A stretch of 64,000 nt of DNA from Candidatus Sulfotelmatobacter sp. Lineage in GTDB: Bacteria > Verrucomicrobiota > Verrucomicrobiia > Limisphaerales > UBA11358. Where the stretch lies: positions 65,383 to 129,382 of the forward strand of contig DATJTK010000170.1 of NCBI GenBank assembly GCA_035503455.1, in the 5' to 3' direction. A program made the translations under genes and the position numbers. Positions 2,694 through 57,015 of this stretch are shown piece by piece. The notes below the pieces were generated by a model, which worked only from the letters and a program-made list of their open reading frames with translations, ran no database searches and had not been told where the DNA came from. Within the stretch, counting starts at the first letter, position 1. Each line of letters starts with the position of its first letter.

Positions 2694-2992
2694 GAACGTG
2701 GGACGAGGGCGTTAGATGTTCTAAATTCGAAACATCGAACGTCGAACGTCCAACGCTGAACATCGAATGCCGAGACGAACGACTTCGACGCGTCAATTGC
2801 CGTTTGAGGATCCAGCGACCTCCGAAAGCAGTGTCGCGCGGACTTGCCACCGCACTCCAAGACGGCAAGCGAGTTCTCACGATTTTTTGGTCCTGGACGG
2901 TCTATGGGAATGGGTTCATACCGTGAGGAATCGTGCCGCTGCCGGTCTAATCATTGATTTAATTGTTATCTGCAATAAACGAAAGAGTTCCT

Positions 2993-4330
2993 ATGAAAGG
3001 CATTTACGGACTGATATTCATAGCCATTCTGTACATGCTCGCGGACCAGGTGGCGGCGGCCTCTGATTTGCCGAGGTACAAATTTGCGCCTGATGAGGAA
3101 CTGGTTTATTCCGGTTCGTCGGGATTTGATTTCGGAAATGGGACGGTGAAGTACTCGGACACGACGCGTTTTTGGGTAACGGGTCAAAACCCGGATGGAA
3201 GCTGGCATCTCATCTTCATCGGCCAAAACAAAGAGATTCTGACCGGCGATTATGCTCCGGCACATGGAATCATCACCAACGCCACAATTTCTTTTGGCCA
3301 TATGAATTTGTTGGCTGACGGGCGAAGAGTGGATAAACCGGCTACACTCCTTACAGCCATTTATCCCGCGTTCTTTCCTCTCCCTGCCGATGCGAATCAG
3401 GCGCGATCCGGCTGGTCATTTGCGAAAAGCTTTGATGTAGAGGCCACAAATCACGTCACGCAGACGGATCCCTGGATCATTGAATCCATCGAGCGAGGAA
3501 TCGCTTACGATATCAAACAAATCGGCGCGTCCAACACGATTTATTTTAATGACGAGCTGGGCCTTGTTGAGAAAATCCAGGTTGAAAAACAACGAGCCAA
3601 GTGGTTTGGCGCCGGTACGGTGGAGTTGGAATCTCACGCCGTGCGAAACCGGGACTGGATGCACCAATTCATTTCGGATGCCGATGCTGTTGACCAGGCG
3701 GAGGCGGCAACCGAAGCGGCATATAAATCCGTTGAGACCGGCGCCGCCGAACCGGAAATTGCCCGGGCGGCCGCACAGCAGGTCCTGGAATCCGCGCTGG
3801 CCCATGTTCAATACGGTTTGCTCCGGGACAAACTCAATTCCGACCTGGGAAATCTCGATGAGCAGTTTCGCGTTGCCCGGGACGAGAGAGAAGGCGTTGA
3901 CCTGGTCCTGAACAAACCCTCGCCGGCGTGGGCCACGACGGATCTCGATGGGCAAAAACATGCGCTTGAGGACTACCGGGGCAAGGTAGTGGCGCTGGAT
4001 TTTTGGGAACGCGATTGCGCTCCATGCATGGTGGCGATGCCGCAGATTAAAGCCCTGGCGGACCAATTTCGCGGCCAGCCGGTTGTTTTTCTCGGAATGA
4101 ACGGTGACCGAAGGGATGAAGACGCAAGGTTTGTGGTGAACAAGATGCAGCTCAATTTTCTTACTCTTCATGGAGCCGACATTGTGGAAAAATACGGCGT
4201 GGATGATTTTCCCACGTTCATCGTGATTGACCAAAAAGGCATCGTGCGGGTCCGGCACGAAGGATGCCAGCCCACGTTGCGCGAGGATATGGCCGAATCA
4301 ATCTCGAACCTCCTTTCCGGCAATCCATGA
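2993..4330 (+). CDS. Secreted TlpA/redoxin-family thiol:disulfide oxidoreductase with large N-terminal domain
   Basis: Signal-like MKGIYGLIFIAILYMLADQVAAA. C-terminal thioredoxin fold with CxxC (FWERDCAPCMVAMP) and FPTFIVID. ATG 2993 preferred over ORF-track start 2963. Confidence 0.8.
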   Translation: MKGIYGLIFIAILYMLADQVAAASDLPRYKFAPDEELVYSGSSGFDFGNGTVKYSDTTRFWVTGQNPDGSWHLIFIGQNKEILTGDYAPAHGIITNATISFGHMNLLADGRRVDKPATLLTAIYPAFFPLPADANQARSGWSFAKSFDVEATNHVTQTDPWIIESIERGIAYDIKQIGASNTIYFNDELGLVEKIQVEKQRAKWFGAGTVELESHAVRNRDWMHQFISDADAVDQAEAATEAAYKSVETGAAEPEIARAAAQQVLESALAHVQYGLLRDKLNSDLGNLDEQFRVARDEREGVDLVLNKPSPAWATTDLDGQKHALEDYRGKVVALDFWERDCAPCMVAMPQIKALADQFRGQPVVFLGMNGDRRDEDARFVVNKMQLNFLTLHGADIVEKYGVDDFPTFIVIDQKGIVRVRHEGCQPTLREDMAESISNLLSGNP

Positions 4331-20289: not shown

Positions 20290-21497
20290 TAGTAGCCCCA
20301 TTGCTTTTTTGAGTTCCGCACGCGGTTTGTGCACAAAGCCTGATAACGCGCGAAGTCTGTACTGCCGGCCGGGACAATCTCCACATAGTAATCATAACCG
20401 GCCTTGCCGTCTGCGAGTTCGATCCTCAAAATATCGCCGACCGCGCCTGCGTCGCGCAACGCCGCACTACGTAGCCGGAAATCACTCTTGTCCGGCCAGG
20501 TCATCATGTTAACCGGTGCAATTTGTCCGCCCAACCGGATCTGGACTGCATGCCGGTCCCATTTTCCTGGCTTGCCAGGGTCTTGCGTGAAAAGTTTCCG
20601 CCAGCCCCAAAATGCCGGATTCGCGTCGCGGGCGGCCAACGGGATAAATATTTCTGGCGAACGCTTGGAAGCTCCTAAAGTCACTTGGCCGGTGCCCGCA
20701 TCAGTCTGTTGTAAAGTCATAACAAACCCACATAATCCTTTTCCTTCTGGCTGGAGTATCTTAAGTGCCAGCTTTTCCTCGATGGGTTCGGCTCGGGCAG
20801 CTGGTTTGACGCGCGTAGCTCCGAAAAGCTTCTTGACTCCCCTTTTTATTGCCGATGTCTGCTGGATGACCTTCACAGCTTCGTTCGTTCGCTGAATTTC
20901 TGCTTCGGTCGGGACATAACCGTTTTCGTGCAACTCCTTAATCAATTCCGTCGTTAACGGCTTTACCGTCTCGTGTTTCGGATTTGTCCATTCATCCAAA
21001 AGCGCTTCTAGGGCAAGAAAGAATTTTTCGTCGTCCGGATTTTTCCTGTCCAGTTGGACGTGAACGAAAGCTTCGTAATTTGTGAACAGTCCACCCTCGG
21101 TGAGATTCCCGGAACCAACAAAGCATTCTGCTGCATTTTCATTCGAAAAAAGGAATATCTTCGGATGAAAAGTCGGCCTTTGGGCGGTTTCGTTGTGCAA
21201 AACCCAAACCCCTCCACTCGACCCAACCGCCACCAATAAATCTGCCAAACCTTCCGCACTGGTCACGCCATGATCAATTCCGACCGAAATCTTGGTTGTC
21301 CCGTGTGTGATGAATGACCCTAACGGCTTGGCCAGATGCTTCACGCCTGAGCGTTTAACGAACGCCACCGCAGCGCGAAATACCTTCCAACTTGGTTTTT
21401 TCAGATTTTCGGCAAGAAAATCGCCAAGCCTTTGCTCACCCTCAGGATGATGAATCAGCTGAATCATTTTGAGGGACCGCGATTCAATGTGCGCCAT
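20286..21497 (-). CDS. PLD-superfamily restriction endonuclease with C-terminal B3-like DNA-binding domain (BfiI/NgoFVII-like)
   Basis: Single HKD-type motif TFHPKIFLFSNENAAECFVGSGNLTEGG in the N-terminal half. The C-terminal half (..SDFRLRSAALRDAGAVGDILRIEL..) resembles the B3/EcoRII-N-like recognition fold of BfiI. Convergent with M2, with stop codons sharing TTAA (20286-20289). Confidence 0.75.
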   Translation of the reverse strand: MAHIESRSLKMIQLIHHPEGEQRLGDFLAENLKKPSWKVFRAAVAFVKRSGVKHLAKPLGSFITHGTTKISVGIDHGVTSAEGLADLLVAVGSSGGVWVLHNETAQRPTFHPKIFLFSNENAAECFVGSGNLTEGGLFTNYEAFVHVQLDRKNPDDEKFFLALEALLDEWTNPKHETVKPLTTELIKELHENGYVPTEAEIQRTNEAVKVIQQTSAIKRGVKKLFGATRVKPAARAEPIEEKLALKILQPEGKGLCGFVMTLQQTDAGTGQVTLGASKRSPEIFIPLAARDANPAFWGWRKLFTQDPGKPGKWDRHAVQIRLGGQIAPVNMMTWPDKSDFRLRSAALRDAGAVGDILRIELADGKAGYDYYVEIVPAGSTDFARYQALCTNRVRNSKKQWGYY

Positions 21498-21860
21498 GAC
21501 AGGATTCGCAAGTTACGTAATTTTCGCCGAACGTACAACTATTGATTTATTCAAGCCCATGTCCAGGATTTCAATAGGTCATAAAAGGGGCAGAGATTAA
21601 GCGGGAAAAAGTGGGAAATCCGAATGTTGTGCCCACAGCTAAAGCGGCGTAAAAACTGTTTCAGTGAAATTGAAGCAGGCAATTGCAAAATTTCTTCTGA
21701 CGTATTGTAGTATTTGTGTCAGCGAGCGGTCAAAAACCAGCCAAGGTGTTACGGATTTTTTTGGCGTCAAAGTTTTGGCCGTGGGCAAAGAGGCGGCTGC
21801 GAGCGCGAGGAACAATGCGACATTCCACGATAACGATAATGTAGCTTTTGTTGCTTTTCC

Positions 21861-21920
21861 TGTTGCCGAAATGTTGCCGACTAAATCATTGACAATCAAC
21901 AATGTTGCCGATGTTGCCGA
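21861..21920. repeat. Four copies of TGTTGCCGA in two adjacent pairs
   Basis: TGTTGCCGA at 21861, 21872, 21903 and 21912, read directly. Confidence 0.8.
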
Positions 21921-22110
21921 TTTCCAGAGCATCATCAAACCATAACCACTAGAGGGTCGCCTCGCCATGGTCGCCACGAAGTGTCCTTCAATCTCCACTT
22001 CGCGGCCTTCGCGTCCTTTGCGTGAGAATTATTCATTTCCGAAAATCACGGGTGCGGTTTCTGTACGCTGTTCCATCTTCCATCCTGCCTAAGCCCGCGA
22101 ATCCCCCTTC

Positions 22111-40698: not shown

Positions 40699-40868
40699 CG
40701 TTCCTCCATTTTCAGTTGAGCCAAAGCCGGCTGTGATAATGAAACATCGCCTATTTCCGGATTTACGCCAGTGACAATGTTATAAAATTTCTTATTTTGG
40801 CGGACCTGTCGGTTTTTTGAAAAGGGCGTGACATCCCGCTTCGTCCTGCTATATTTAGAATTTCTGAC

Positions 40869-40943
40869 GACCCTATCGTCTAGCGGTTAGGACACCACCC
40901 TTTCACGGTGGCGGCCCGGGTTCAAGTCCCGGTAGGGTCGCCA
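40869..40943 (+). tRNA. tRNA-Glu (anticodon UUC)
   Basis: Cloverleaf read by hand: acceptor GACCCTA/TAGGGTC, anticodon loop CTTTCAC, T-arm CCGGG-TTCAAGT-CCCGG, encoded CCA. Close to E. coli tRNA-Glu in the D and anticodon arms. Confidence 0.95.
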
Positions 40944-41290
40944 ATTTTATGACTGCTGGTTATTTACGATCCAGGTTGCGTAACCTATCGCCGAATTTCC
41001 TTTATAGAATAGAAAATGATCAATCTTGTAAATTTTATGACAACCGCTGGTTCGTTAACCGCAGCTATTGTCCGACCTAATTTGTATTGAAACCATTTCC
41101 AATTCATATAGGTATGGTCACGGCGTCGTTTTTTGCGCAATTCATCGTGATTCGTGGAGCCAGGATCCCTGAATTGAAAATCGTAAATTGAAATGAATTA
41201 TACCGTTATTTTTATTAAGGCAAAAGCGATTTTGTTGTATTTACGCTCGCTTTTTGAAAACGCTTGTGTAATAATGACCAGAACAGTAAA

Positions 41291-44200
41291 ATGAGGCGCA
41301 CGTTCATATGGTTTATTGTCCTGCTTATCGCGGCAGGCGTGGTTTTTTTCGTGCGCCAGGACCATAATTCAAAAAACCCTGCCAGTACTCAATCCGCCGT
41401 TCGTTCCCAATCTTCGGCCAATGCCACGGCATCAGCCGCCGCTGCAAAATCGGCAGCGGCTTCGGCCATTACCAATAAGGCTGGCAATAAGTTTGCCTGG
41501 CGTTTGAAGAACACGGACAAACCGCTGAGCCAGCTCATTGATGATCCTCGGGCGATTCTGCTGGAAAATGCGTTTATTGAAACCGGCTCGAAATTAAATC
41601 TGGCGATACCGAAGAACCTGCAATCACCGGGCGACCCTGGAGCGTATGTGGTGCAGGCGCGTGGGCCAATCAGCGCGGCGTTTCGGTCGGTTTTGGCTGG
41701 GGCGGGGGCAACCATCGTCTCTTACATACCCAACAACGCGTATCTGGTTCGAGCCTCGGAAGGGGTGGCTGATGCGCTGGCTGCCAATCCGCTGGTGCAG
41801 GCGGTGATACCGTACGAGCCGTATTATAAAGTGCAGGAGCAGCTATTGGCGCAGGCGCAGCAACCGTTGCCCGCGGACGTTCAGTTAAACCTGGGGCTTT
41901 TCGCCGATGATGCAGCCGACACGGTCCAACAAATCCAGAAAATGGGGGGGATCATTTTGTCGGAAGAAAACTCCGCGGCGGGATATCCGATTGTTAAGGT
42001 CGAGCCGCCGGCAGATTGGACGGCCATTGCGGGGCTGCCCGGGGTGCATATAGTTGAGCCCTATTATCGGCGGACCCTGGCCAACGACCTTGCGCGAGCG
42101 CAAATGCAAATATCGGCTGACGGGATAACGACAACCAACTATGACAATCTGTACGGTTCAAACGTGATCGTCGAGGTCGATGACACGGGCATAGACACCA
42201 ACCATCCGGATTTCAGCAACAATCACGCTAAATATCGGGTTTTTTATACGGACCCGAACATGGGGACCGATACCAATGGGCATGGGACGCACGTGGCGGG
42301 CATCATCGCCGGGGACGGATTTGAATCAACCACCGTGACCAATGCGTACGGCTCGCCGATGCCAGGAAGTCCGCAGCAATTTCGGGGGAAAGCGCCGATG
42401 GCGGAGATGCTGTCGATGAACTATCTGGATGCGGACCAGGACCTGCAGGCTGCGGCGGCCCAAACCAACGCGCTGATCTCCAACAACAGTTGGGTCAACG
42501 GCGACGCCGATTACGATCTTGAGGCAGCCAGCTACGATGCAGCGACGCGAGATGCGTTGCCGTTTGTGACTGGGTCGCAGCCGGTGCTGTTTGTTTTTCC
42601 ATCGGGCGACAGCGGGAGCGTGGCCGACAGCATCCAATCGCCTGGGACAGCCAAGGACGTGATCACCGTAGGCGCGTTGGAGGAGGGCCGATACATCACC
42701 AATTTAGTGACCGATGCCAGCAGCAATGTAACTGAAGAGTGGTTTCCGGAAACGGATGATTCCAACGCGGTGTGGAATACGTCGCCGTTCGAAAACGTGG
42801 CATCGGGGGACGGCAATGTGGGGATCGGGACTGAAGGCACGTATGGCCGGTTCAAGCCGGACCTTGTGGCCCCCGGCACGTTTGTGATTTCGTGCCGATC
42901 GGAACAATGGGACACCAATGCATATTACAATCCCACCAACAATGACATTCACGTATTTGCGGATTTAATCCCCACCAATTCGGTCAGCACCTCGCCGTTC
43001 CAGTTTCTTGTGCCCGGCAATGCCGTTGAGGTTATTTTCTCTGTGGCAACCAATGCCAGTTCGCCGGCGGTGCTGCCGGTGATGCCCATCTATCTTGAGA
43101 CCAATTCGGCGGGATATGGCCTTATTGGAAGCAATAATGCCGTCGTTGGACCCACTCCTCCGGTGCTCAACGAAGACTGGTCGGTGGTGGTGAGCAATAC
43201 GACCGCGTCTCCGCTGGCCTATGATTTGATTGTGGACGTGCAAACGACCAATAATTACGGGAACTATTACACGGTGCTGCAGAACATGAACGACAGCCTG
43301 GGACCCCCCATAAATTACTACCGCTACGAGACCGGCACGAGCATGTCAGCGCCGGCGGTTTCTGGATTTCTTGCGCTGTTGCAGGATTATTTTACCAATC
43401 AATATACGCCAGCGTTAATCCCGAGCCCGGCGTTGCTGAAAGGGTTGGCCATCAACGGCGCGCTGACAACCGAACCGCAATATTATCCGCAGATCAACGG
43501 CTCGATCAATTACGAAGGGTGGGGTCTGCCCACGCTTCCCAACACGATAGTCCCGGGCATCACCAACGTGCTGAACGTTCCCTGCTCGACGTTTTTCCGG
43601 GACCAAAGCCTCTCCAACGCGCTGGCCACGGGCGAGAGCGAAACATTTATCGTGAACATGAACTCCAATGACTTTGGCAACTATTTGCCATTGCATGTGA
43701 CGCTGGCATGGACGGACCCGCCGGGCGATCCGGCGGCGGCGATTAAACTGGTCAACAGCCTGGAACTGGTGGTGACGGACCTGGACAACCCGGGCATCGT
43801 GTATTACGGAAACGACATTGGGGCCGGCGGCTTTAACAACGTCGAGAGCGCCACCAACCCGCCGATCATCGATGCGATCAACAACGTCCAAAACATCAAT
43901 ATCAATCCCTACCCGCCGCGCGGGACGCCCGACTCGGATTATTCCATCACCGTTATTGGCAATCGTGTGAACGCCAATGCGGTGAGCGAGCAGACAAACG
44001 ATATCGTCCAGGATTACGCGCTGGTGGTTTCGGCCGGCAACATCGACGTGGGCCAAATGAGCAATGCCATCGAGAATGTGAGCGATGAGGGCGTCGTTGC
44101 CAATCCTACCGGCGACCAATTAATCACCCAGGCACAGACCAACACGATATTGCTCAACCAGACCGTTGGCGCCAACACACCGCTGATGGGGACCAATACC

Positions 44201-47200
44201 GTTGGCTTTACAACCAACACGGTGGATTACGGCGCCAACGGCCAGTTCTACGTGGGGATGACCAACCAATGGCATTTCTACGTGGTGACCAATACCACCC
44301 TCTTTACCAATGCGGCATTCATCACTTTTGGCGCCAACACACTATCGATCCCGCGCATGGGAGTGTTTGCCAATTCCATCGACAATGCGACGACACCGGG
44401 GGCGGACTTGGACCTGCTGGTGACTCGAAGCGGCACCGATGGCAACGCGGCCAATCTGTTGAACCTGGACCCGGTTGAAATCTCCAACTGCCTCAACGGA
44501 GCCAGCGGCGATGGCGCCTCGCTGGTATCGGGCGGCACGGACTTCGTCGCCTACAGCAACGCGCTGCCCAATGAAGTCTATTACATCGGCGTGAAATCAG
44601 AAAGCCAGATGGGAGTGCAATACAGTTTCATTCCGATATTCACCGATACACCGTTTGGCGGCCTGGACCAGAACGGCAATGAATATGTCAACGCGCTCAA
44701 TGCGCCATCGCTCATTCCCGATGGCACGGCGTCGCATCCGGGCTACTCGATAGTTTTTGGGCTGGCGCTGTATCCGATCACCATTCAAAACGTCATCATC
44801 ACCAACACGATTTACGACCAGAACTTTGGTGACCTGGTCGGTTCGGTCACGCACAGTGGTGTTTCGGTGGGGCTAAACAGCCATGATTCGTTCGGGCCGG
44901 GGGAGTACTCCCTGATATACGACGGCTTCGGAACCAACGATACTGCCGGCGCGCGTCCGGTCGATGGTCCGGGCAGCCTGCAGAACTACGTTGGCGCCTC
45001 CGGCCAGGGTGTCTGGCAATTTACCGAGGAAAACAACTCGCTGGGTCAAACCGGTGAAGTCCTCAACACCCAAATGTTCCTGCAAAAATACCAGAACCCG
45101 CGCAATGGCATCTACGTGACCGTCCAGCCGATGTCATGGTTTTATACGTATATTACCATTCCGGCCGGCTACACGAATATGGAGCTTTTTGGCATCAATA
45201 CCAATTTGTCGCCGGCGACGCCGCCGATCCAGATGTATTTGAATACCGGCGGCGACCCGACGATGACGAGTTATCTTTTTGAAGCCGATCTCACCAATGC
45301 CGAGTTTGCGCCGCTTCCACCCCCATTTGTTGAGGTGCCGGGAGTGTGGAACGAGATTTCGGATGGACCTCCGCTTGCGCCTGGAACTTATTACATCGGT
45401 CTTTATAATCCGAGTTCGACCGCCGAAGGGGTCTATCTGCTGGCGGTGCTCAATGGCCAGTCAACCGTGGTTCAACCCTCGCTCTTCACCGATACCAACA
45501 CCGTGCCGGTGATTAATGACGCGGTGACCTCTTCGACCAATACGATCATTGCGATCAGCAACACACCAGCCATCATATCGTCCCTGAATGTCGGCTTCGT
45601 CGTTCAATACCCGCGAATATCGGATTTGGCGTTCACGCTCATTAGCCCGCAGGGCCAGCGCATCCTGCTGATGGAAAATCGCGGCGGTCCCACGACCACC
45701 AACGCCGGAGGTGTATTCTATATTACCAATTCGATAGGCACGACGACGGCCAACGGCAGTTTTGAGGCGCAAACCAACACCTACAACGTCCAGAACAACG
45801 CCGGTTCACTGTCTGTGTCCTTCAACGCGTACACGATACCTGATCAATTGACGATCTATTACGGGAATGATCCATCCACGTTTAATACCAACGGGGCAAA
45901 TTCGACTCTGCTGTTCAACTCAGGCATGATTGGGGCCGAGCTTGGCGGCAATGGAATAACCAATTTCACCGTCAATTTCGGGCCGGGCACATCCACCTAT
46001 GTGACATTTATCGTCAACCAGTTCGGCAATACCAACGGCACCGGTGGCGACGCATGGACGTATACGATTAATGGGACGTTCCCCAGTTATAATTACCTGA
46101 CGTTCACCGACGACACCAACCTCACTGACACGGCCATTAAATTTGCCATCCCGCCCTTCGACCTGCGCGATCTTGGCACCAATTATACGTTTGGCAATTT
46201 AGACCTGTCCAGCAATGGCGATTATTTCGGGCTGACAAACATCTATGATGCGTATGGCGGCTGGACCGTTCCCAGCAACCAGGTCATCCAGGTGACCAAC
46301 GGCGTTGTTTACACCAACAACTACAATGAAGTCAGCGTCATCTCAGATCCCGGCGTTGCGTTCCAAAGCAATACCAACAGCAGCAATTTCCTGGCGCTGG
46401 GTTACGGCACCATTATACGCACCAATCTCCTGACGCCTTACCGGCTGGTGACCGTTTCCTATCAGTATCGCGGCCCGGGCATCGCCGGCTGGTGGCGTGG
46501 TGAAGGTGACGCGCACGACAGTTCCGACGCCGAACAGCATGGACAAAACGGTTCGCTCATCGGCCGGTTTACCTTCCCCGCCGGAGAGGTGAGCCAGGCC
46601 TTTGCCATGGAGAACAACGGCCTGGCGTATGATTTTGCCGGCACCAACAGCTACGTTCAAATCCGTCAACAGCCCTTCTACGAGCAGGTCATAACCAACA
46701 GCGGCACCAACCTCGAAAACACCGGGCCGATAACCATTCAATCGTCCTACCTTGACGTCGGGACTGGCCCCGGGTTGACCGTGGAAGGCTGGATTAATCC
46801 GACGAACCTGGCGTATCAGCAGCCGCTGGTGGAATGGCTGGCCCGCGTTCCCACCAACGGGTCCGATACCAATCTGACCATTCGCGCCGGGCCCTTCCTG
46901 GACCGCGCCACCAGCCATTATTATTATATGCTGGGGCCGACCAATTGGACCACGTCGGAAACCTGGGCCGAACAAATCGGCGGTCATCTGGTCACGATCG
47001 ATTCGGCGAACGAGCAAAACTGGGTGTATGACACATTCGCCAGTTACGGCGGCAGGAACCGCAATTTGTGGATCGGCCTGACCAACGCCGGAGTCACTTT
47101 TGCGTACTCCAGCGGTCTGACAAACATCGCCTATACGAATTGGCTGTTTACGCAGCCCACCAACTGCGGCGACCCGGCCCGAAAGTATACGTTCATGTTC

Positions 47201-50200
47201 GGGCCGACCAATGAGTACGCCGGAAACTGGGCGCTGGCGGACAATGAGGGGATCATGTGCGGCCCAGTGACGAACATCATGTATGGGGTGGTGGAAGTGA
47301 CCAATATCCAGACCAACGGCGTCCAGTTCTGGATCTCGATAACCAATGTTCCGGGCACAACCAATCTGATTACGACCAATACCGGCTGCCTGTTTGCCAA
47401 CCTGGTGGACATCACCAACGGGTCGCACTGGATTTATTCGGCGCCGGGCCTGATCCAGAGCAACCTCTTCCAGCATGTGGCCCTGACGTACGACACCAAT
47501 TCGGGCATCGCATCGCTGTTCTACGACGGCACCAATGTCGCCACGACCAATTGGGGTTTCAATATTGTGCCCAAGACCACCGGCGACGTTTTGCTGGGCA
47601 AGGACATGAGCCTGGAAACCAACAACTACTACAGCGGTCTCATGGATGAAATGAGCATCTACAACCGCGCGTTGTCGGATGCGGAAATCCAGGCGATATA
47701 TTCGGTATCGGCTTACACGACCAATCGCCTGATCGGCAAATTTGATCCGACGATCACACCGCCGCTGAGCCTTGCCGAAGCGCAGGTTGTCCTGGGCAAC
47801 ATGACCAACACCCTTTTGGGACAAAACAATACATGGCAGCAGGGCAGTTTCACGTTCATACCGCAAACCAATGTGTTCCCGATGCAGGTCCGGGGCATCC
47901 AACCGGGCATGTTGATGGATTCGTTTGCCGTGAGCGAAGCGCCGCTGGGCAATTTGTACTATTTGCCTGAGCAGTCGCTGGAGGAACTCAACGGGCAAAG
48001 TCCCAACGGCAATTGGACTCTGGAAATCTGGGACACGCGCAACAATGCCCTGGCCACCAACGCGAACCTGCTGAGCTGGCAATTGCAGATGATATTGCAG
48101 AGCAATACGCCCCCGCCGATCACCGTGGGCACGCAGGAGCCAATCGATGTGACCATCCTGCCGGGTGAGATCGTCACGCTGGCCGTCCCGGTTCCCGCCT
48201 GGGCCCAGGAAGCCACAAACATCCTGGTCTCATCCACTGAGCCCTTGAACGTGTTCTATAACCCAACCAACGCGCCGACGGGATCGGTGCCGCCGGATTA
48301 TATCCTGCAGCAGCCGCCGGCCACGCCGGTCCAAACCGGCAGTTGGACCTTGACCACAAACACACCGCTTCCGGACATTGTCCAGGGCGGGACCTATTAC
48401 ATCGGTCTCCAAAATACCGGGCCGCACGCCGCGTCGGCGGTCTTCCAGGTGGATTTCAACATCATGGCCCTGACCAACGATGCGCCCTACAGCGACACAG
48501 TCACAAATGATGCCGTGCGGTATTTCAGCTTTAATGTGACGTCCACCAACGCTTACGAAGCCACCTTCCAGCTATTGCACATGAACGGCAACGCGGACCT
48601 GGTCGTGAGCAAAGGCACGCCCCTGCCCACTCTGACCAGTTCCGATTACGGCAGCTTCAACAGCGGCAACGCCGACGAAAATATCTATGTGCTGACCAAT
48701 TCAGAGCCGGTGCCGCTCTCGGTTGGCACATGGTATATCGGCGTCTTCAATCGCGATACCCATCCAGTGACTTATGATGTGGTGGCGCAGGAACTGGATT
48801 TAAATCCGGTATCGAACACCAATCTGACCATCATCCCGCTGACCAACGGCGTGCCGTTGGATTATACCGCCGGACCGGGCGCCGCCTTGACCAATTTCTT
48901 CTCCTTCGTGGTGACAAACACGGTCACCAACACGGCTTCCGGGCTCATCACCAATTACGTCGGCTCCATCCATTTCGAACTGTATAACCTGACCGGCAAC
49001 GGCGACTTGACCGTGCAAACCGACGCGCCGCCGTTTGCGCCGCCGTTCTTCCAAAGCAGCGATGAACCCAGTACGGCCCCTGAATTTATCCAAATCCGAA
49101 CCAATAGCGCCCTGACAAACCTGACCGCGACGTGGTATCTGGGCGTGCCGAACGATACGACGAATTTAATACACTTCACTATCATCGCCGTTATTGATAC
49201 GAACAACGTCTTCCCCGCCTTCCCCGGGGCGGAAGGCGCGGGCGCGGGCGCGCTGGGCGGACGAGGAGGCGATGTTTATCATGTCATTAACCTGAGCGAC
49301 TCAGGGCCCGGCTCGCTCCGCTACGGCATTACGAACTTCTTTGGGACTGGTGCGACCAATACTCCTGGAACAGGGACCACGAATTTGCCCAACGGCAGTA
49401 TTACCAACGTCTCAGGGGCCCGAACCATCGTATTTGATGTGTCCGGCATCATACATTTGCTATCACCGCTTGTGATCTCCAATTCGTATATCACAATTGC
49501 CGGTCAGACTGCTCCCTGCGGTGGCGTCACAGTGTACGGCCAAATGACTACCGTCCAGTCCGCTCATGACGTTGTTATCCGCGACGTGCGTTTTCGCCGT
49601 GGTTCGGCCGATGATTCATTGCAGTTTACAAACGCGACCGAGGCCATCGCCGACCACGTCTCCGCCGAATGGACATCGGACAACCAGTTGTCTGTATTAA
49701 ACTCCTCAAACGTCACCGTGCAGTGGTCCATGCTCTCGGACGGCTTGTACAGCCCAACCAATAATCCACCCCCGATCGGCGCGCTGGTGCGATACGGCAG
49801 CGGCGCCGTCAGCCTGCATCACAATCTCTTTGCGGATGACTATACTGGCAGCCCCCGCCTCGGCGACAACGTCAGCCTGGATTTCGTCAATAACGTCATT
49901 TACAACTGGGTGACAAACGCCGGATATTCGTCGTCCAATGACATTGAGGACAACCCGAATGGATTTACAAATTATCTCAATTACATTTGCAATTATCTCA
50001 TCGCTGGCCCGAATACGATAACGACCAACATGGCTTTCTGGAGCGGCAATACCAATACATGGCTCTTCCAAACCAATAACTTCATAGACAGCGACGATGA
50101 CGGTGTGCTGAACGGCGCGAATACCGAGTGGGACATGTTCACCAATTGGAACGGCTCGACAAACTACTATACTGTGACCAATCAATTCCGTCTGCCGCCT

Positions 50201-53200
50201 GTTTCAATCGATGAAGCCTATCTCGCATATGAAAAGGTCCTGGATTTCGCCGGCGTGGATTTGTGCAAGCGCGACCCGATCGACACAAACATCGTCGAGC
50301 ACGTTCGCAACAATCAGGGCGCACTTGAGTCCCTCCCGCCATTGTCAGGCATGGTCGCCTGGTGGAAGGCCGAAGGCAACATGCTCGATAGTTGGGGAAC
50401 GAATAATGGAATATTGACCAATGGAACGTTCGCTTACGCTCCGGGAGAGGTCGGAATGGGCTTCAGTTTTAATTATAGCCCCGTACAGATTATCGTGCCG
50501 GATGCGCCGTCTCTGAACTTCGGTCCTGGGCAGGACTTTTCACTTGAAGGATGGATCCGGGCGTTTCCAACGAACTATTACAGGGATGTGATGTCAATTA
50601 TAGACAAGCGTCTTGCCAATGGCGGCAATTGCGTGGGCTATGATGTCAATCTGACTGGTGGGACTCTGAATTTTCAAATGTCAGATAATTACAACAGCGG
50701 CACCAGCCTTGTACAGGCCGGGACGTTTTTGGCTGACGGCAAATTGCATCATATTGCGGTCACTGTGCAGCGTCTGTCGACAACCGGGGGCCGCATATAC
50801 GAGGATGGCGTATTGGTGAATACATTTGATCCGACCGGTCAATCCGGAGACTTAACGTCGACCCAGCCATTGCGCATCGGCAACCATGCCGACCCGACTT
50901 ATAGTGGAAATCCCGGTGCATACTTCAACGGACAAATTGACGACTGGGCGATTTACAAACGCGCTCTCACTTCCGACGAAGTCACCGCCATCTACCAACT
51001 CGGTCCCGAAGGCAAGTTCGCATGGCGCCCGAAATTCCTTGAAAGGAACTTTTTGGATACGGATCGCGATGGCATTCCAGATTTCTGGGAGAGCACATTT
51101 GGCCAAAGCCTGACCAATGCCAATAACAACATTCTTTCGACCAACGCGAATAACATCGGATACAGCGACCTCGAGGAATTTGACAACTGGCTTGCCGGGC
51201 CGCATGCGGTGACAACCACCAATACGCCGGTGAACGTGAACTTGTATCAACTTTGCGGTGATACGGGCAATTTGCGATTCTTCCTTACCAATGCCGTCAA
51301 CGGTTCCGTTTATCTGACAAATGAGGTCAACACGAACGGAATCATCGTCACGGAAGGAACGGAACTCATGACCAATACGATTGCCGTATTTACGCCCTCA
51401 AATGGTATCACCGGTTACGCTTCATTTGGGTTCTACGTGACCAATACCGATACTTACGGATATTTCGGCCCTGTCACCGTGAGCGTCGTTGTAAGCCCGG
51501 TGCCGGTCACTTACACGGCCAGGGCCGGTTTCCTGCCGCAAAACCAGCCGCTGACGAATACTGTATGCGCCAATACCATCGAATGGTACAAGATCAGCGT
51601 GCCGACCAATGCGGTACAGGCAACAAACACCCTGATTTTTGCCGGCGCGCCAGTAAACTTCTGGTATAGCTCCAACGATCCGCCTTCAACAGTCAATTCC
51701 AGCGACTTTGAGTTGCTGAAAGATTCGACCAACGGCTCTGCCATCATCAACATCAGCGGTGCGCCGCTCCCGCCCGTCCTTGCCCCCGGCGGCACATATT
51801 TCCTCGGCATCCAAAACACGAACAATTTTGCCACGAATTATGCCGTCCAGGTGAACTTTCAGACCATTACCCCTCCACCCGGCGGCATTATCATTATCAA
51901 CCCTGGCCAGCCGGTGACCAATATCATGCCACCCTCCGCCAGCAGTCCTGGCAGCGCGAGCGGAGGCGGTTCCGCTAATCCTGTTTACATCCCAATCTTC
52001 GTGCCGCCCAATGCCATTTCGGCGACCAACACGCTGCTCTTTTCCACCGGCGGCGCGACAAGCCTGTGGTTCAACCAGACGACCTGGCCCGGCTTTGGCG
52101 CGACACCGGGCGATGTTGAGTTGATCGCGAACTACGCGGGCACTACGCCTACCAATTACATTTTAACTTCAAATAGCATTCCACCCCTGATGCCGGGCCA
52201 AACCTATTACCTTGCTATCGATAACACTTCGTCCGCCACTGTTACGAACGCCTTCGAATATACCTTTGACTTGTATTATACGCCGCCCATCCTGCCGCCG
52301 GTGACCAACATCGATATCGTCGCGGGAAATACGTTGAACGTGAATGATGAGGCGACCGATACCAACGCGGGCACATTGGTTTATTACCTGACGACCATGC
52401 CGGATGTCACCAATGCCACTATCTCAACGACCGGCCAGATCACCTGGACGGTGCCCACCAATACGCCCGGTGAAAACGTCTTGTTCACGACGGTCGTCAG
52501 CAATTCGTTCACAACGATGACCGCGACGAATGAATTTACCGTCACGGTTCTGCCCCTGGTGTCGCCGGTCCTGCCGCAAACCAATTCGGTTGCGTCCAAC
52601 TCCGTCAACTGGCTGGCTGTGCCGGTGCCGGTGGATGCCAATCACGCAACGAACATCCTGCTCTTTGCCACAAATCTGCCGGTGAACGTCCTGTTTACGA
52701 CCAATTTCCAACCTGCGGTTGCCGGCGCCTACACATTGATGTCCAACCAAATGAGTGGCGTCAGCATTTTAGGGACGGGCACTGTGCCCACGAATATCGT
52801 CCCTGGCTCGGTCTATTATCTTGGCATCCAAAACACCAATAGCCTCGCGGTCGGCTACGCTCTCCAGGTGAATTTCGGCTATTACCCGGCGCCTGTACTG
52901 CCGGCCATTTCAAATCTGGTCATCACTGCCGGCCAGACACTGACGGTCACCAACTCGGCGACGGACAGCAGCGGTGTCGGCATATTGTACTACGCGCTCA
53001 CGACGTCGCCGTCAGTCAATGCCACAATTTCGCTAACCAACGGCGTCATTACCTGGGCCACTGCAGCCAGCCAGGCACTTGGGAATTACGTTTTCACCAC
53101 CATCGTGACGAATTCGGCCACTACTCTGAGCGCCACAAATACGTTCAAGGTGACGGTCATCCCTGCGCCAGAGTTTGTGCGCGTGAGCATTATCTATACA

Positions 53201-53944
53201 AACATCAGCGGCACAAACGGCTTCCTCCTGACATGGTTTGCGGCGACCAATGACTACTTCAAGGTCCAGGAAACCCCGGCTCTGGTCCCGCCGGTCTGGA
53301 ACTCGTTCACAAATATTATTGCCTATGCCGGACCGGTGACGGCAACCAACGGGTTATTCAGCTTCTTTGATAACGGCTCGCAATATCCGTTTGGTGTCTC
53401 GCGGTTCTACCGTCTGTTGTTGTTGGAGGCCAACGGCCTGACGTTGCCTGTTCTGAGCAATTATGTTTTGAGCGTTTCCGAGCCATTGAGCGTTACTAAT
53501 ACCGCTATAGATTCAGATCCCGCGGCGATTTTGGATTACAACCTGACGGGATTCCCTGATCCGGCCACAAATGCCTTGATAAGCACCAACGGTGTTATCA
53601 CCTGGATACCGGGGCCTGGCGATGCGGGGAGTGCCTTCACGTTTACGACCACCGTGAGCGATAATGGCCTGCCCCCGGCAAAAGCGACCAACGCCTTTAC
53701 GGTCTTCGTGTTGCCGGCCCCGGTCATTACGGCTTCGGCGGCCACGCCTTCGGGAGTGACCTTCCAATGGACTGCCTCGACCAACGACCTGTTCCAGGTG
53801 GAGTGGACAACCAATCTGATTTCTGGAAATTGGACGCTGCTGCCGCAAGTTATCAGTTCTTCAACGGGTTCATTCACCTTTACAGATAACGATCCATCCG
53901 CCGTCATGAAATTCTACCGGCTCGTCTGGCTCCCGCCGTTGTAG
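41291..53944 (+). CDS. Giant (4,217-aa) secreted multidomain protein: S8 subtilase + P-domains + LamG/C-type lectin + PL1-like pectate lyase + repeated jelly-roll and Ig-like modules
   Basis: N-terminal anchor/signal MRRTFIWFIVLLIAAGVVFFV. S8 triad: VDDTGID (~42180), HGTHVAGII (~42280), GTSMSAPAVSG (~43335). Proprotein-convertase P-domain: YPRISDLAFTLISPQGQRILLMENRGG (~45600). C-type lectin: WTTSETWAEQIGGHLVTIDSANEQNWV (~46950). LamG tails: MDEMSIYNRALSDAEIQAIY and IDDWAIYKRALTSDEVTAIY. Pectate lyase: FPGAEGAGAGALGGRGGDVYHVINLSDSGPGSLRYG...ITIAGQTAP...FVNNVIYNW (~49200-49920). Confidence 0.9.
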   Translation: MRRTFIWFIVLLIAAGVVFFVRQDHNSKNPASTQSAVRSQSSANATASAAAAKSAAASAITNKAGNKFAWRLKNTDKPLSQLIDDPRAILLENAFIETGSKLNLAIPKNLQSPGDPGAYVVQARGPISAAFRSVLAGAGATIVSYIPNNAYLVRASEGVADALAANPLVQAVIPYEPYYKVQEQLLAQAQQPLPADVQLNLGLFADDAADTVQQIQKMGGIILSEENSAAGYPIVKVEPPADWTAIAGLPGVHIVEPYYRRTLANDLARAQMQISADGITTTNYDNLYGSNVIVEVDDTGIDTNHPDFSNNHAKYRVFYTDPNMGTDTNGHGTHVAGIIAGDGFESTTVTNAYGSPMPGSPQQFRGKAPMAEMLSMNYLDADQDLQAAAAQTNALISNNSWVNGDADYDLEAASYDAATRDALPFVTGSQPVLFVFPSGDSGSVADSIQSPGTAKDVITVGALEEGRYITNLVTDASSNVTEEWFPETDDSNAVWNTSPFENVASGDGNVGIGTEGTYGRFKPDLVAPGTFVISCRSEQWDTNAYYNPTNNDIHVFADLIPTNSVSTSPFQFLVPGNAVEVIFSVATNASSPAVLPVMPIYLETNSAGYGLIGSNNAVVGPTPPVLNEDWSVVVSNTTASPLAYDLIVDVQTTNNYGNYYTVLQNMNDSLGPPINYYRYETGTSMSAPAVSGFLALLQDYFTNQYTPALIPSPALLKGLAINGALTTEPQYYPQINGSINYEGWGLPTLPNTIVPGITNVLNVPCSTFFRDQSLSNALATGESETFIVNMNSNDFGNYLPLHVTLAWTDPPGDPAAAIKLVNSLELVVTDLDNPGIVYYGNDIGAGGFNNVESATNPPIIDAINNVQNININPYPPRGTPDSDYSITVIGNRVNANAVSEQTNDIVQDYALVVSAGNIDVGQMSNAIENVSDEGVVANPTGDQLITQAQTNTILLNQTVGANTPLMGTNTVGFTTNTVDYGANGQFYVGMTNQWHFYVVTNTTLFTNAAFITFGANTLSIPRMGVFANSIDNATTPGADLDLLVTRSGTDGNAANLLNLDPVEISNCLNGASGDGASLVSGGTDFVAYSNALPNEVYYIGVKSESQMGVQYSFIPIFTDTPFGGLDQNGNEYVNALNAPSLIPDGTASHPGYSIVFGLALYPITIQNVIITNTIYDQNFGDLVGSVTHSGVSVGLNSHDSFGPGEYSLIYDGFGTNDTAGARPVDGPGSLQNYVGASGQGVWQFTEENNSLGQTGEVLNTQMFLQKYQNPRNGIYVTVQPMSWFYTYITIPAGYTNMELFGINTNLSPATPPIQMYLNTGGDPTMTSYLFEADLTNAEFAPLPPPFVEVPGVWNEISDGPPLAPGTYYIGLYNPSSTAEGVYLLAVLNGQSTVVQPSLFTDTNTVPVINDAVTSSTNTIIAISNTPAIISSLNVGFVVQYPRISDLAFTLISPQGQRILLMENRGGPTTTNAGGVFYITNSIGTTTANGSFEAQTNTYNVQNNAGSLSVSFNAYTIPDQLTIYYGNDPSTFNTNGANSTLLFNSGMIGAELGGNGITNFTVNFGPGTSTYVTFIVNQFGNTNGTGGDAWTYTINGTFPSYNYLTFTDDTNLTDTAIKFAIPPFDLRDLGTNYTFGNLDLSSNGDYFGLTNIYDAYGGWTVPSNQVIQVTNGVVYTNNYNEVSVISDPGVAFQSNTNSSNFLALGYGTIIRTNLLTPYRLVTVSYQYRGPGIAGWWRGEGDAHDSSDAEQHGQNGSLIGRFTFPAGEVSQAFAMENNGLAYDFAGTNSYVQIRQQPFYEQVITNSGTNLENTGPITIQSSYLDVGTGPGLTVEGWINPTNLAYQQPLVEWLARVPTNGSDTNLTIRAGPFLDRATSHYYYMLGPTNWTTSETWAEQIGGHLVTIDSANEQNWVYDTFASYGGRNRNLWIGLTNAGVTFAYSSGLTNIAYTNWLFTQPTNCGDPARKYTFMFGPTNEYAGNWALADNEGIMCGPVTNIMYGVVEVTNIQTNGVQFWISITNVPGTTNLITTNTGCLFANLVDITNGSHWIYSAPGLIQSNLFQHVALTYDTNSGIASLFYDGTNVATTNWGFNIVPKTTGDVLLGKDMSLETNNYYSGLMDEMSIYNRALSDAEIQAIYSVSAYTTNRLIGKFDPTITPPLSLAEAQVVLGNMTNTLLGQNNTWQQGSFTFIPQTNVFPMQVRGIQPGMLMDSFAVSEAPLGNLYYLPEQSLEELNGQSPNGNWTLEIWDTRNNALATNANLLSWQLQMILQSNTPPPITVGTQEPIDVTILPGEIVTLAVPVPAWAQEATNILVSSTEPLNVFYNPTNAPTGSVPPDYILQQPPATPVQTGSWTLTTNTPLPDIVQGGTYYIGLQNTGPHAASAVFQVDFNIMALTNDAPYSDTVTNDAVRYFSFNVTSTNAYEATFQLLHMNGNADLVVSKGTPLPTLTSSDYGSFNSGNADENIYVLTNSEPVPLSVGTWYIGVFNRDTHPVTYDVVAQELDLNPVSNTNLTIIPLTNGVPLDYTAGPGAALTNFFSFVVTNTVTNTASGLITNYVGSIHFELYNLTGNGDLTVQTDAPPFAPPFFQSSDEPSTAPEFIQIRTNSALTNLTATWYLGVPNDTTNLIHFTIIAVIDTNNVFPAFPGAEGAGAGALGGRGGDVYHVINLSDSGPGSLRYGITNFFGTGATNTPGTGTTNLPNGSITNVSGARTIVFDVSGIIHLLSPLVISNSYITIAGQTAPCGGVTVYGQMTTVQSAHDVVIRDVRFRRGSADDSLQFTNATEAIADHVSAEWTSDNQLSVLNSSNVTVQWSMLSDGLYSPTNNPPPIGALVRYGSGAVSLHHNLFADDYTGSPRLGDNVSLDFVNNVIYNWVTNAGYSSSNDIEDNPNGFTNYLNYICNYLIAGPNTITTNMAFWSGNTNTWLFQTNNFIDSDDDGVLNGANTEWDMFTNWNGSTNYYTVTNQFRLPPVSIDEAYLAYEKVLDFAGVDLCKRDPIDTNIVEHVRNNQGALESLPPLSGMVAWWKAEGNMLDSWGTNNGILTNGTFAYAPGEVGMGFSFNYSPVQIIVPDAPSLNFGPGQDFSLEGWIRAFPTNYYRDVMSIIDKRLANGGNCVGYDVNLTGGTLNFQMSDNYNSGTSLVQAGTFLADGKLHHIAVTVQRLSTTGGRIYEDGVLVNTFDPTGQSGDLTSTQPLRIGNHADPTYSGNPGAYFNGQIDDWAIYKRALTSDEVTAIYQLGPEGKFAWRPKFLERNFLDTDRDGIPDFWESTFGQSLTNANNNILSTNANNIGYSDLEEFDNWLAGPHAVTTTNTPVNVNLYQLCGDTGNLRFFLTNAVNGSVYLTNEVNTNGIIVTEGTELMTNTIAVFTPSNGITGYASFGFYVTNTDTYGYFGPVTVSVVVSPVPVTYTARAGFLPQNQPLTNTVCANTIEWYKISVPTNAVQATNTLIFAGAPVNFWYSSNDPPSTVNSSDFELLKDSTNGSAIINISGAPLPPVLAPGGTYFLGIQNTNNFATNYAVQVNFQTITPPPGGIIIINPGQPVTNIMPPSASSPGSASGGGSANPVYIPIFVPPNAISATNTLLFSTGGATSLWFNQTTWPGFGATPGDVELIANYAGTTPTNYILTSNSIPPLMPGQTYYLAIDNTSSATVTNAFEYTFDLYYTPPILPPVTNIDIVAGNTLNVNDEATDTNAGTLVYYLTTMPDVTNATISTTGQITWTVPTNTPGENVLFTTVVSNSFTTMTATNEFTVTVLPLVSPVLPQTNSVASNSVNWLAVPVPVDANHATNILLFATNLPVNVLFTTNFQPAVAGAYTLMSNQMSGVSILGTGTVPTNIVPGSVYYLGIQNTNSLAVGYALQVNFGYYPAPVLPAISNLVITAGQTLTVTNSATDSSGVGILYYALTTSPSVNATISLTNGVITWATAASQALGNYVFTTIVTNSATTLSATNTFKVTVIPAPEFVRVSIIYTNISGTNGFLLTWFAATNDYFKVQETPALVPPVWNSFTNIIAYAGPVTATNGLFSFFDNGSQYPFGVSRFYRLLLLEANGLTLPVLSNYVLSVSEPLSVTNTAIDSDPAAILDYNLTGFPDPATNALISTNGVITWIPGPGDAGSAFTFTTTVSDNGLPPAKATNAFTVFVLPAPVITASAATPSGVTFQWTASTNDLFQVEWTTNLISGNWTLLPQVISSSTGSFTFTDNDPSAVMKFYRLVWLPPL

Positions 53945-56178: not shown

Positions 56179-57015
56179 TTGGTCAATATGAAAACCCTCG
56201 AGACCTGGAAGAGAAGAGTCATAAAGGGTTTTACTTTAATCGAATTGCTCGTCGTCATTGCCATCATCGCCATCCTGGCAGCGATACTTTTGCCGGTCAT
56301 TTCAAAGTCAGAGGAACAAGCGCGTACCATCCAATGCATCAATAACATGAAACAATTGGCGTTGGCATGGATCACCTACGCCAATGACAATAACGATTTT
56401 CTGCCTCATAATTGGGCCCTCGGGAACAACCCGCCGCTCTCCTGGTGCTCCGGGAATGTCAATGTGCAATTCACTCCCGGGGACATTTTCGACATTACCA
56501 ACGGCACTCTTTTTCCATACGTTCTGGATATCCCGGTTTACCATTGTCCGGACGCGCAATTGAAGAATGGCCAGGTTGAAATACGGACCGTTTCAATGAT
56601 TGACCGTATGGCCGGAGCGGACGCCACCGATGCCGCTCAATATGGGGTATGGGATTCCGCCAATTCCGATTTCTCAAGCGATTTGGAAACCGAATTCCCC
56701 ATGTTCAAAAGGATGAACCGGATTAAGAGTCCGTCCCCAGCCGAAGCCATCGTCTTTGACGACGAAAGCCAGCTTACTATTGACGATGAAGTCCTGGGAA
56801 TGGATTGGAACGATTGGAAGAATGCCGTTTCGGCCCGGCACAACAAAGGCTGTGTTTTCTCGTTCGCGGACGGACACGCCGAGCGCTGGCAATGGCTGGG
56901 TTTGAGCACAGATGTAGGTGCCGGCTATGCGCCCGCTATGTCTGATACAGGGGGTTGGCACGATTTACGCAGAGTTGAGGCGGCTATTGTGGCAACGAAT
57001 CTGCCTCCAAATTGA
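56179..57015 (+). CDS. Prepilin-type N-terminal cleavage/methylation domain protein (pseudopilin, DUF1559/H-X9-DG-like)
   Basis: [24 protein letters not shown] class-III signal. C-terminal ...FADGHAERW as in PVC-group 'H-X9-DG' proteins. Confidence 0.85.

Follow-up and report, generated by a model that had tools for sequence, protein, structure and literature searches.

A giant subtilase-lectin protein of Limisphaerales and its putative link to a type IV pilus-like operon

The gene and its setting

We analysed a 64,000-nucleotide stretch of DNA, called the window below, from a Verrucomicrobiota genome of the order Limisphaerales (Candidatus Sulfotelmatobacter sp.; assembly GCA_035503455.1, contig DATJTK010000170.1, positions 65,383 to 129,382 of the forward strand). 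Our subject is a gene in this window that encodes a protein of 4,217 amino acids (aa), which we refer to as the giant. It combines an S8 subtilase with lectin-type and jelly-roll modules, a beta-helix related to pectate lyases and a C-terminal stalk (Table 1; coordinates are window positions). Here we describe the gene, its family and its genomic setting, and argue that the giant is a candidate pilus-associated protein whose lyase-like domain is predicted to be catalytically dead.

The reading frame is uninterrupted from 41264 to 53944 on the forward strand, and the ATG at 41291 opens the open reading frame (ORF; 41291-53944). The protein begins MRRTFIWFIVLL, and orthologues use the same start. 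The gene lies in the interior of a contig of ~132 kb, in a genome of 5.9 Mb, 182 contigs and 92% completeness. On one side of it are tRNA-Glu and the hem operon, on the other a methyltransferase gene and thiH, and its GC content (0.52-0.56) matches that of the flanking genes.

A protein built from repeated module types, in a 182-contig assembly of the metagenome type, invites the suspicion of an assembly artefact or pseudogene, whether a chimera or a product of collapsed repeats. The longest direct DNA repeat inside the gene, however, is 43 nt at 72% identity. An orthologue from an independent assembly (P0003; 4,215 aa) aligns as a single high-scoring segment pair over residues 1-4216 with 82% identity, a second colinear orthologue from an independent assembly has 4,239 aa, and more than 100 orthologues of 3.4-5.5 thousand residues all have open frames. 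Since long repeats are absent and independent orthologues are colinear, repeat collapse or chimerism is very unlikely, and we consider the chance of an artefact negligible. The 4,217-aa ORF is a genuine gene, and its contiguity, a point that a preliminary description of this DNA had marked for checking, is well supported.

The leader of the gene contains a single weak sigma-70-like site (41174-41201) and is 80% identical to the leader of a relative, L019. Over the wider span 40699-41290, which takes in tRNA-Glu and the AT-rich leader, identity to the upstream region of L019 is 80-88%, so conservation of the untranslated leader comes close to that of the protein.

Distribution of the family

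A word-indexed protein search returned 257 proteins of 2.3-5.6 thousand residues that are 40-83% identical to the giant, mostly from metagenome-assembled genomes (MAGs) of Verrucomicrobiae. Relatives carry names such as 'S8 family peptidase', 'LamG-like' and 'subtilisin-like proprotein convertase family protein'. Residues 50-3000 are common to ~115 of 119 relatives. The segment 925-1730 has matches in at least 397 clusters (50% identity) at E<=1e-30 among 1.84 billion proteins, and these matches nearly always begin at target residue ~940-1010.

The same segment is present in 26 of the 27 sampled genomes of the source order, representing 19 of 20 families; among genomes from the other orders in the class, it was found in ~1 of 173. 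The source genome has one copy of the giant. The giant therefore appears to be a single-copy signature gene of one Verrucomicrobiota order (subdivision 3, Limisphaerales/Pedosphaera type) and not an isolated mosaic. A literature search on the giant family and the pilus operon described below found no description of either; the preliminary description, which knew of no characterised protein with this architecture, agrees with that result.

A likely ancestral place in a type IV pilus-like operon

In two relatives (L013 and L014), the giant follows 4-5 N_methyl prepilin genes and a gene for a 1,340-1,360-aa protein without a Pfam match, which we call the partner. All lie on the same strand, and uvrA lies downstream. 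Across the order the partner measures 1,250-1,550 aa, and it is found in 27 of 27 order genomes compared with ~1 of 173 in the rest of the class. Its gene ends less than ~900 nt (estimated) upstream of the giant, on the same strand, in 24 of 26 genomes from 19 families; the two exceptions lie at contig ends.

The partner of the source genome (1,442 aa, starting ERGIALVITLILLAVTL) is encoded on another contig, C2 (G000:C2). It is preceded by prepilins with the N-termini GFSLVELL, AFTLIEML, GFTMMEI and GFTLVEIL, and upstream of these are genes for PilC, a PilB-like ATPase, a PilT-like ATPase and a second PilB-like ATPase. By order and N-terminal motifs, the pilin set of the operon, made up of major and minor prepilins, reads GspG-G-H-I-J-K. 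Coming after a PilX-like partner in an operon that also has pilB, pilT and pilC, the giant would thus hold the position at which other bacteria have PilY1, a tip adhesin, in a retractile type IV pilus (T4P)-like operon. Orthologues hold this position in the 24 genomes just mentioned, and the giant of the source genome does not. We propose that the ancestral place of the giant was as the last gene of a T4P-like operon.

In the source genome the partner is the last gene of the pilus operon, and the next gene is convergent. A relative of the giant with 83% identity (P0004) has the same flanking context as the source gene, and the gene order in P0010 and P0014 is recA-giant-uvrA; the unlinking is therefore old and common to a subclade. 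We considered recent horizontal transfer to a new locus and rejected it: the GC content matches that of the neighbours and the 83% relative has the gene at the same site next to the tRNA, which indicates an old rearrangement and not a recent island.

Shorter paralogues of the partner occur as well. One of them, in the source genome (L102; G000:C72:4990-7590), is an 866-aa ORF that is 61% identical to partner residues 581-1363, lacks a pilin-like N-terminus and has neighbours unlike those of the pilus operon. Similar paralogues of 820-870 aa are also found in other genomes of the order, at G159:C6, G129:C3 and G098:C33.

The unlinked state, which extends through the whole subclade apparently without decay, could also mean that the giant works independently of the pilus, as an anchored or S-layer-like adhesin-protease of the envelope with its own promoter here, and that the pilus synteny is historical only. 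The conserved 347-bp leader of its own, the lack of a PilY1-type domain and an Ig-like stalk that resembles surface adhesins and S-layer proteins would all fit such a protein. Less easily accommodated are the same narrow phyletic distribution of giant and partner, an adjacency across 19 families that is far above chance linkage, and the preservation of an intact pilus operon in the source genome. We judge this alternative unlikely, though it retains real weight.

A different role for the operon is suggested by its pilins. Reading as GspG-G-H-I-J-K, they could form the pseudopilus of a type II secretion system (T2SS), in which G, H, I, J and a giant K-like subunit push the giant through a secretin as a free exoenzyme. 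In Dichelobacter nodosus, T4P/T2SS machines export subtilases. However, the operon encodes a PilT-like retraction ATPase, as is usual for retractile pili but not for T2SS, and no secretin is encoded on the operon contig. We therefore regard a T2SS-style substrate as rather improbable. By sequence it is inseparable from tip display, and it forms a sub-variant of the reading we favour, in which the giant is a pilus-associated protein that is displayed or exported.

A lyase fold without its catalytic residues

The preliminary description identified a PL1-like pectate lyase in the giant. The homology stands, whereas the residues needed for catalysis are lost. A PDB sequence search aligned residues ~2710-2885 with PfPL1 (9buj; E 4e-26) and also returned VexL (6fi2; E 8e-5); Pfam returned no lyase model for the segment at E<=1, so that the relationship is visible only by the PDB search. 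We confirmed 570 relatives of the domain by tblastn.

The proton-abstracting catalytic base of PfPL1 is Arg220 (PMC11229556). Mapped against that paper, it is the Arg of H-N-S-R-T-P-R in the published construct; the 'Arg235' of the same paper matches no Arg of the construct, and Arg220 (R-T-P) is the only one that can be mapped (PMC11229556). Aligned opposite Arg220 in the giant is Gly2853 (nt 49847-49849, in T-G-S-P-R). Across 119 orthologues, this column contains Gly in 68, Ala in 41 and Asp in 2, with 8 unmatched. The corresponding residue of PelC is Arg218. The acidic pair that follows DH.S..W (as W-S-x-D-E) is also altered, reading D2797-N2798 in the giant.

We compared 80 loci with relatives of the domain, in proteins of Bacteroidota, Bacillota, Planctomycetota, Pyrinomonadaceae and other Verrucomicrobiota, and sorted them as colinear or non-colinear by aligning their upstream 640 aa with the giant. 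The non-colinear relatives, of which there are 50 or more, all keep R-x-P-[RK] except for one with His, and most keep W-S-x-D-E. All colinear relatives among these loci have Gly, with DE replaced by DN, NN, TN, ND or RQ. Two candidates for a compensating Arg were rejected. Arg2856 is not conserved (R in 29, Q in 10 and others in 14 of 53), and Arg2834 is also present in Verrucomicrobiota and Pyrinomonadaceae homologues that retain the catalytic Arg.

The fold itself is well preserved. The motifs DH.S..W, QWS, HHNL.A and DFVNNVIYNW are kept, the fold-signature residues do not vary, and distant orthologues share 59-67% identity across the domain. This degree of conservation indicates selection for something besides beta-elimination. 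We conclude that the PL1-like domain is, on the evidence of these alignments, a catalytically dead pseudo-lyase across the family, and its retention would be explained most simply by ligand binding.

These findings bear on the role proposed in the preliminary description, a cell-surface machine that joins a protease and a lyase to degrade cell walls or glycoproteins. In its strongest form, the giant would be an autonomous enzyme in which an active protease, an active pectate lyase and carbohydrate-binding modules together degrade plant or algal walls. The beta-helix is a genuine PL1_2 homologue, lectin-type modules are present, and five members with a second, intact PL1 domain make pectin-like ligands plausible for the family. 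However, neither the catalytic Arg nor the Asp-Glu pair survives in the giant or in any of its orthologues, and the Arg is kept in the non-colinear homologues. Catalytic residues are thus missing from the lyase half, an outcome that the preliminary description itself had named as refuting its reading; the protease triad is intact. Moreover, no carbohydrate-active enzyme (CAZyme) or sugar-uptake genes are found among the neighbours of the giant, and order-wide single-copy conservation with pilus synteny does not suit an accessory enzyme of polysaccharide utilisation. Given the loss of lyase residues throughout the family, the proposed machine is not supported, and we consider an autonomous wall degrader very improbable.

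Several variations of the domain were seen. The five members with a second PL1-like domain (P0029, P0030, P0031, P0033 and P0034) carry it, with an intact SRNPR motif, in the variable C-terminus. P0004 has an insert of ~258 aa (its residues 2758-3016) inside the PL1-like domain before the ADDS strand (aa 2769-2771 of the giant, nt ~49595-49603) and lacks a LamG at the usual slot after this domain; the optional module seems to have been placed elsewhere. PL1_2-like domains from Pyrinomonadaceae (Acidobacteriota) MAGs (L046, L050, L057-L059 and L066) are 42-46% identical to that of the giant and keep the Arg, and those of Bacteroidota and Bacillota are only 33-38% identical. The closeness of the Pyrinomonadaceae domains may reflect transfer between soil phyla.

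N-terminus and S8 protease

An Ala/Ser-rich linker follows the N-terminal hydrophobic helix, and the anchor pattern is kept in ~50 of 60 homologue N-termini, the rest of which begin further into the protein. Read from the sequence, the N-terminus of the giant shows neither an AxA-type cleavage site nor a lipobox. We infer that the helix is a signal-anchor or an uncleaved signal peptide. The region before the catalytic domain is among the best conserved blocks of the protein, with 69% identity over aa 101-150 in 88 distant homologues. Because Pfam and a PDB sequence search with residues 60-290 gave nothing usable, its likeness to an I9 propeptide is read at the level of motifs.

The S8 domain is well supported. 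Peptidase_S8 (PF00082) scores 112.2 bits against a cut-off of 21.8, and the nearest solved structures are KP-43 (1wmd, E 7e-26) and SubHal (5fax, E 5e-25). The triad consists of D298 (D-T-G; nt 42182-42184), H331 (H-G-T-H; 42281-42283) and S684 (G-T-S-M; 43340-43342), and each residue is invariant in 116 of 116 aligned homologues. S684 lies 353 aa beyond H331, and the domain has a poorly conserved insert of ~120 aa (545-665; 29-30% identity).

The position of the oxyanion hole (N155 of subtilisin) is occupied by Asp440, in the motif P-S-G-D440 (window 42608-42610). In 116 homologues this position is Asn in 89, Asp in 25 and Gly in 2, and homologues with Asp are scattered across operon-linked and unlinked members. 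Proprotein convertase 2 carries Asp at the oxyanion-hole position yet is active. With this residue as a caveat, the conserved triad suggests that the subtilase is probably active.

The domain directly after the protease is of the KP-43 type, its motif LAWTDPPGDPAAAIKLVN is nearly invariant in the family, and the closest solved relatives are S8A enzymes. Membership of the kexin/furin type (S8B) was rejected, as P_proprotein lies ~750 aa past the catalytic Ser and not directly after the protease. NCBIfam matches to mycosin, TafC and Bdellovibrio MAT were all sub-threshold and were disregarded.

Binding modules and C-terminal stalk

The domain inventory of the preliminary description was nearly all recovered by Pfam, PDB sequence search and self-built profiles. 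The signal or anchor, the S8 protease with ~350 aa between His and Ser, the proprotein-convertase-type P-domain, the LamG interrupted by a C-type lectin, the second LamG, the motif of a calcium-binding-type loop after it, three ~90-aa Ig-like modules and two terminal FYRL modules were all found. Two items stood in part. Where at least eight jelly-roll modules had been counted, five gave strong matches to a self-built profile and the remaining three were weak. The second P-like segment has a motif that is kept in the family consensus, and its P_proprotein score of 17.8 bits is below the cut-off of 21.

In the family-specific region, P_proprotein matches residues 1432-1507 at 25-39 bits (cut-off 21). 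A PDB sequence search with residues 925-1730 gave no usable match. An AlphaFold 2 (AF2) model of the segment has a mean predicted local distance difference test score (pLDDT) of 58, rising to 70-90 at ~1085-1390 and 1485-1595, and is all beta. Foldseek matched it to CUB domains, collagen-binding domains and furin/ASP P-domain jelly rolls, all of them generic matches.

The first LamG (Laminin_G_3, 61.2 bits against a cut-off of 27.6) encloses a C-type lectin domain (CTLD) flanked on both sides by LamG-type sequence. Lectin_C at 1884-1958 scores 26.5 bits as an isolated segment and 22.4 in the whole protein, against a cut-off of 22.6. In the PDB, the CTLD matches the mannose receptor (E 1.9e-5) and also langerin. 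At the positions of the EPN/QPD...WND Ca2+/sugar motifs, it reads QPT...W.LADN. The LamG-with-CTLD unit is the best conserved block outside the protease (65-71% identity), which suggests that it binds a single conserved ligand.

Two of the three PPC-like modules that precede the beta-helix match a self-built profile at E 5e-43 and 6e-39, and the third is weak; the Pfam PPC model scores 21.4 bits, below its cut-off. The second LamG (79.5 bits against the same 27.6) is the least conserved block, at 22-38% identity, and occupies an optional slot. In 73 homologues the slot measures 50 aa in 25 (empty), ~256-284 aa in 45 and 423-503 aa in 3. In the acidic loop DTDRDGIPDFWE that follows, an alignment of 24 homologues shows no change at D, G, P, D and W. 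PF18884 is a precomputed match for some homologues, and the loop is predicted to bind calcium.

The C-terminal stalk forms a confident string of beta-sandwiches in an AF2 model of residues 3251-4217 (mean pLDDT 72, with the stalk at 70-94), and residues 3251-3415 are poorly modelled despite their conservation. Foldseek on the stalk returned tandem Ig, cadherin and Fn3 arrays as generic matches. Kinship with the Aureispira grappling-hook protein GhpA, the base of which was the top Foldseek match, was rejected as a generic match (template modelling score ~0.12). Across the family, the tail after the acidic loop varies from 133 to 2,173 aa (most at least 431 aa) and may contain RCC1, NHL, SGL or DUF642 modules. 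Such variability suggests lineage-specific targets.

Table 1. Features of the giant gene and its product (nt, window positions; aa, residues of the giant)
Feature	nt	Strand	aa	Basis or remark
AT-rich leader, 347 bp	40944..41290	+		Between tRNA-Glu (40869-40943) and the start codon of the giant
Basic stretch and hydrophobic helix MRRTFIWFIVLLIAAGVVFFVRQ	41291..41356	+	5-21 (hydrophobic part)	Read from sequence
Pre-catalytic region, motifs AYVVQARGP...IVSYIPNNAYLVRA...VQAVIPYEPYYK	41516..42100	+	76-270	Two I9-propeptide-like beta-alpha-beta segments
S8 subtilase catalytic domain	42155..43525	+	289-745	Pfam PF00082
KP-43-type beta-barrel	43568..44065	+	760-925	Second stretch matched by SubHal/KP-43
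Family-specific all-beta region, jelly rolls and P-domain 1	44066..46477	+	926-1729	Pfam, AF2, Foldseek
P-domain 1	45563-45835	+	1425-1515	Pfam P_proprotein
LamG/ConA-like module	46478..47710	+	1730-2140	LamG_3 at ~2011-2134
C-type lectin domain nested in LamG	46913-47260	+	~1875-1990	Lectin_C 1884-1958
Weak second P-domain-like segment PNGNWTLEIWDTRNN	47738..48100	+	~2230-2266	P_proprotein, sub-threshold
Three PPC-like jelly-roll modules	48161..49210	+	2291-2400, 2406-2512, 2558-2640	Self-built profile
PL1 subfamily-2-like parallel beta-helix	49211..50335	+	2641-3015	PDB match to PfPL1
Second LamG, optional slot	50354..51025	+	3022-3245	LamG_3 at 3073-3231
Thrombospondin-type-3-like acidic loop DTDRDGIPDFWE	51056..51091	+	3256-3267	Pattern DxDxDGxPDxWE
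C-terminal stalk of alternating modules	51569..53926	+		Self-built profiles; AF2 model all beta
Stalk PPC-like modules		+	3427-3530, 3561-3666, 3769-3869	Self-built profiles
Stalk Ig/cadherin-like modules		+	3655-3750, 3858-3953, 4044-4137	Self-built profiles
Stalk FYRL-ending beta-sandwiches		+	3941-4043, 4125-4212	Self-built profiles

Downstream of the giant, a DUF1559/N_methyl pseudopilin gene (window 56179-57015) lies between thiH and thiS. At L019, which is 83% identical, thiS (21753-21959) comes straight after thiH (20455-21741) with no pseudopilin gene, so this gene is an insertion in the source lineage.

Discussion

What does a protein of this size do for the cell? Our results support the giant as a secreted or anchored multi-domain protein with several lectin-type modules. 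As to its role, we give somewhat better than even chances to a pilus-associated protease-lectin that is either displayed on the pilus machine or exported by it. The N-terminal helix would carry the giant across the inner membrane or anchor it there, by Sec export or anchoring. The propeptide-like region would aid folding of the subtilase, and autocleavage could free a mature chain of ~3,950 aa for display on, or export by, the pilus machine. Outside the cell, ~25-30 beta-sandwich, lectin and beta-helix modules would attach to glycans or glycoproteins, and the S8 domain would cleave protein. The binding modules would be the LamG with its nested CTLD, the P-domains, the PPC-like jelly rolls, the dead PL1 beta-helix and the Ig-like stalk. 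In the source lineage and its close relatives, the gene would have come to occupy a different locus, where it has a leader of its own, and the last slot of the pilus operon would have been left empty.

Several observations weigh against this proposal. The giant is not linked to the pilus operon in the source genome, and its leader shares no words of 11 nt or more with the intergenic regions of that operon. Pfam scans of the whole protein and of its segments found no PilY1/PilC beta-propeller (PF05567), and PilX_N on the partner of the source genome scores 23.4 bits, just under its cut-off of 25.5. The one sampled genome of the order that lacks the giant, G111, has the partner, so the pilus can exist without the giant. 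Asp440 at the oxyanion hole may lower the activity of the protease. Finally, it is from sequence that we infer autocleavage, the export route, tip display and the ligands. As for the site in G111 (L101; G111:C24:10500-13654), a divergent partner stops 63 nt before uvrA, and the giant is cleanly absent from its ancestral place.

The pilus-associated reading can be carried further. The whole order may possess a retractile T4P with a lectin-studded protease of at least 4,000 aa at the tip slot, a 'fishing line with an enzyme hook'. The hook would bind glycosylated particles, matrix or cells, and would digest protein at a distance or haul the target in. The beta-helix of the dead lyase would have been recruited as a polyuronate-binding module, and in the source lineage the hook gene would be regulated independently. 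We offer this version tentatively, as an attractive idea that may well prove wrong.

If the link to the pilus is functional, this would be the first T4P-like machine with a giant enzyme, and not an adhesin, as its tip-position protein. It would be conserved across an abundant order of bacteria from soil, peat and freshwater, hardly any of which are in culture, and would bear on how that order attaches to and feeds on polymeric organic matter. Two natural experiments are at hand, namely the separation of gene and operon in the source lineage and the missing giant of G111. The pseudo-lyase offers a clean natural case of a CAZyme fold retained in ~110 orthologues after loss of the catalytic base, and PL1-like domains of this sort should not be annotated as pectinolytic capacity in metagenomes. 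To this picture the source locus contributes the unlinked state of the gene, the family-wide dead lyase, the oxyanion Asp and the G111 absence.

How does the giant compare with known systems? The beta-helix is clearly homologous to PfPL1, a parallel beta-helix of PL1 subfamily 2, and both have the fold-signature motifs. Arg220 and Asp-Glu of PfPL1 are replaced by Gly2853 and Asp-Asn in the giant, and the second Arg of R-x-P-R is unconserved in the family. Among solved structures, those nearest to the S8 domain are KP-43 and SubHal of Bacillus, and the beta-barrel that follows is part of the match. However, these are free exoenzymes of ~430 aa, to which the giant adds a 120-aa insert, the oxyanion Asp and ~3,300 more residues.

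The upstream pilin set of the operon has the gene order and N-terminal motifs of the T2SS tip GspH-I-J-K. Unlike in T2SS, the K-like subunit is ~4x larger here, a PilT-like ATPase is present, and the cargo is encoded in the operon. A further parallel, in operon position, is PilY1/PilC. The giant differs in that it lacks the beta-propeller and vWA domains, is 3-4x larger and has an active-looking protease; in the source genome it lies outside the operon, and its attachment to a pilus is putative. It shares with PilY1/PilC a large size, a non-pilin nature, an N-terminal helix for export and the presence of binding modules, and its ancestral operon contains PilB, PilT and PilC. In 24 of 26 sampled order genomes its slot is also that of PilY1/PilC of type IVa pili, as in the fimU-pilVWXY1E operon of Pseudomonas and the minor-pilin/PilY1 clusters of Myxococcus, behind the genes for GspH/I/J-like pilins and for a PilX_N-type protein.

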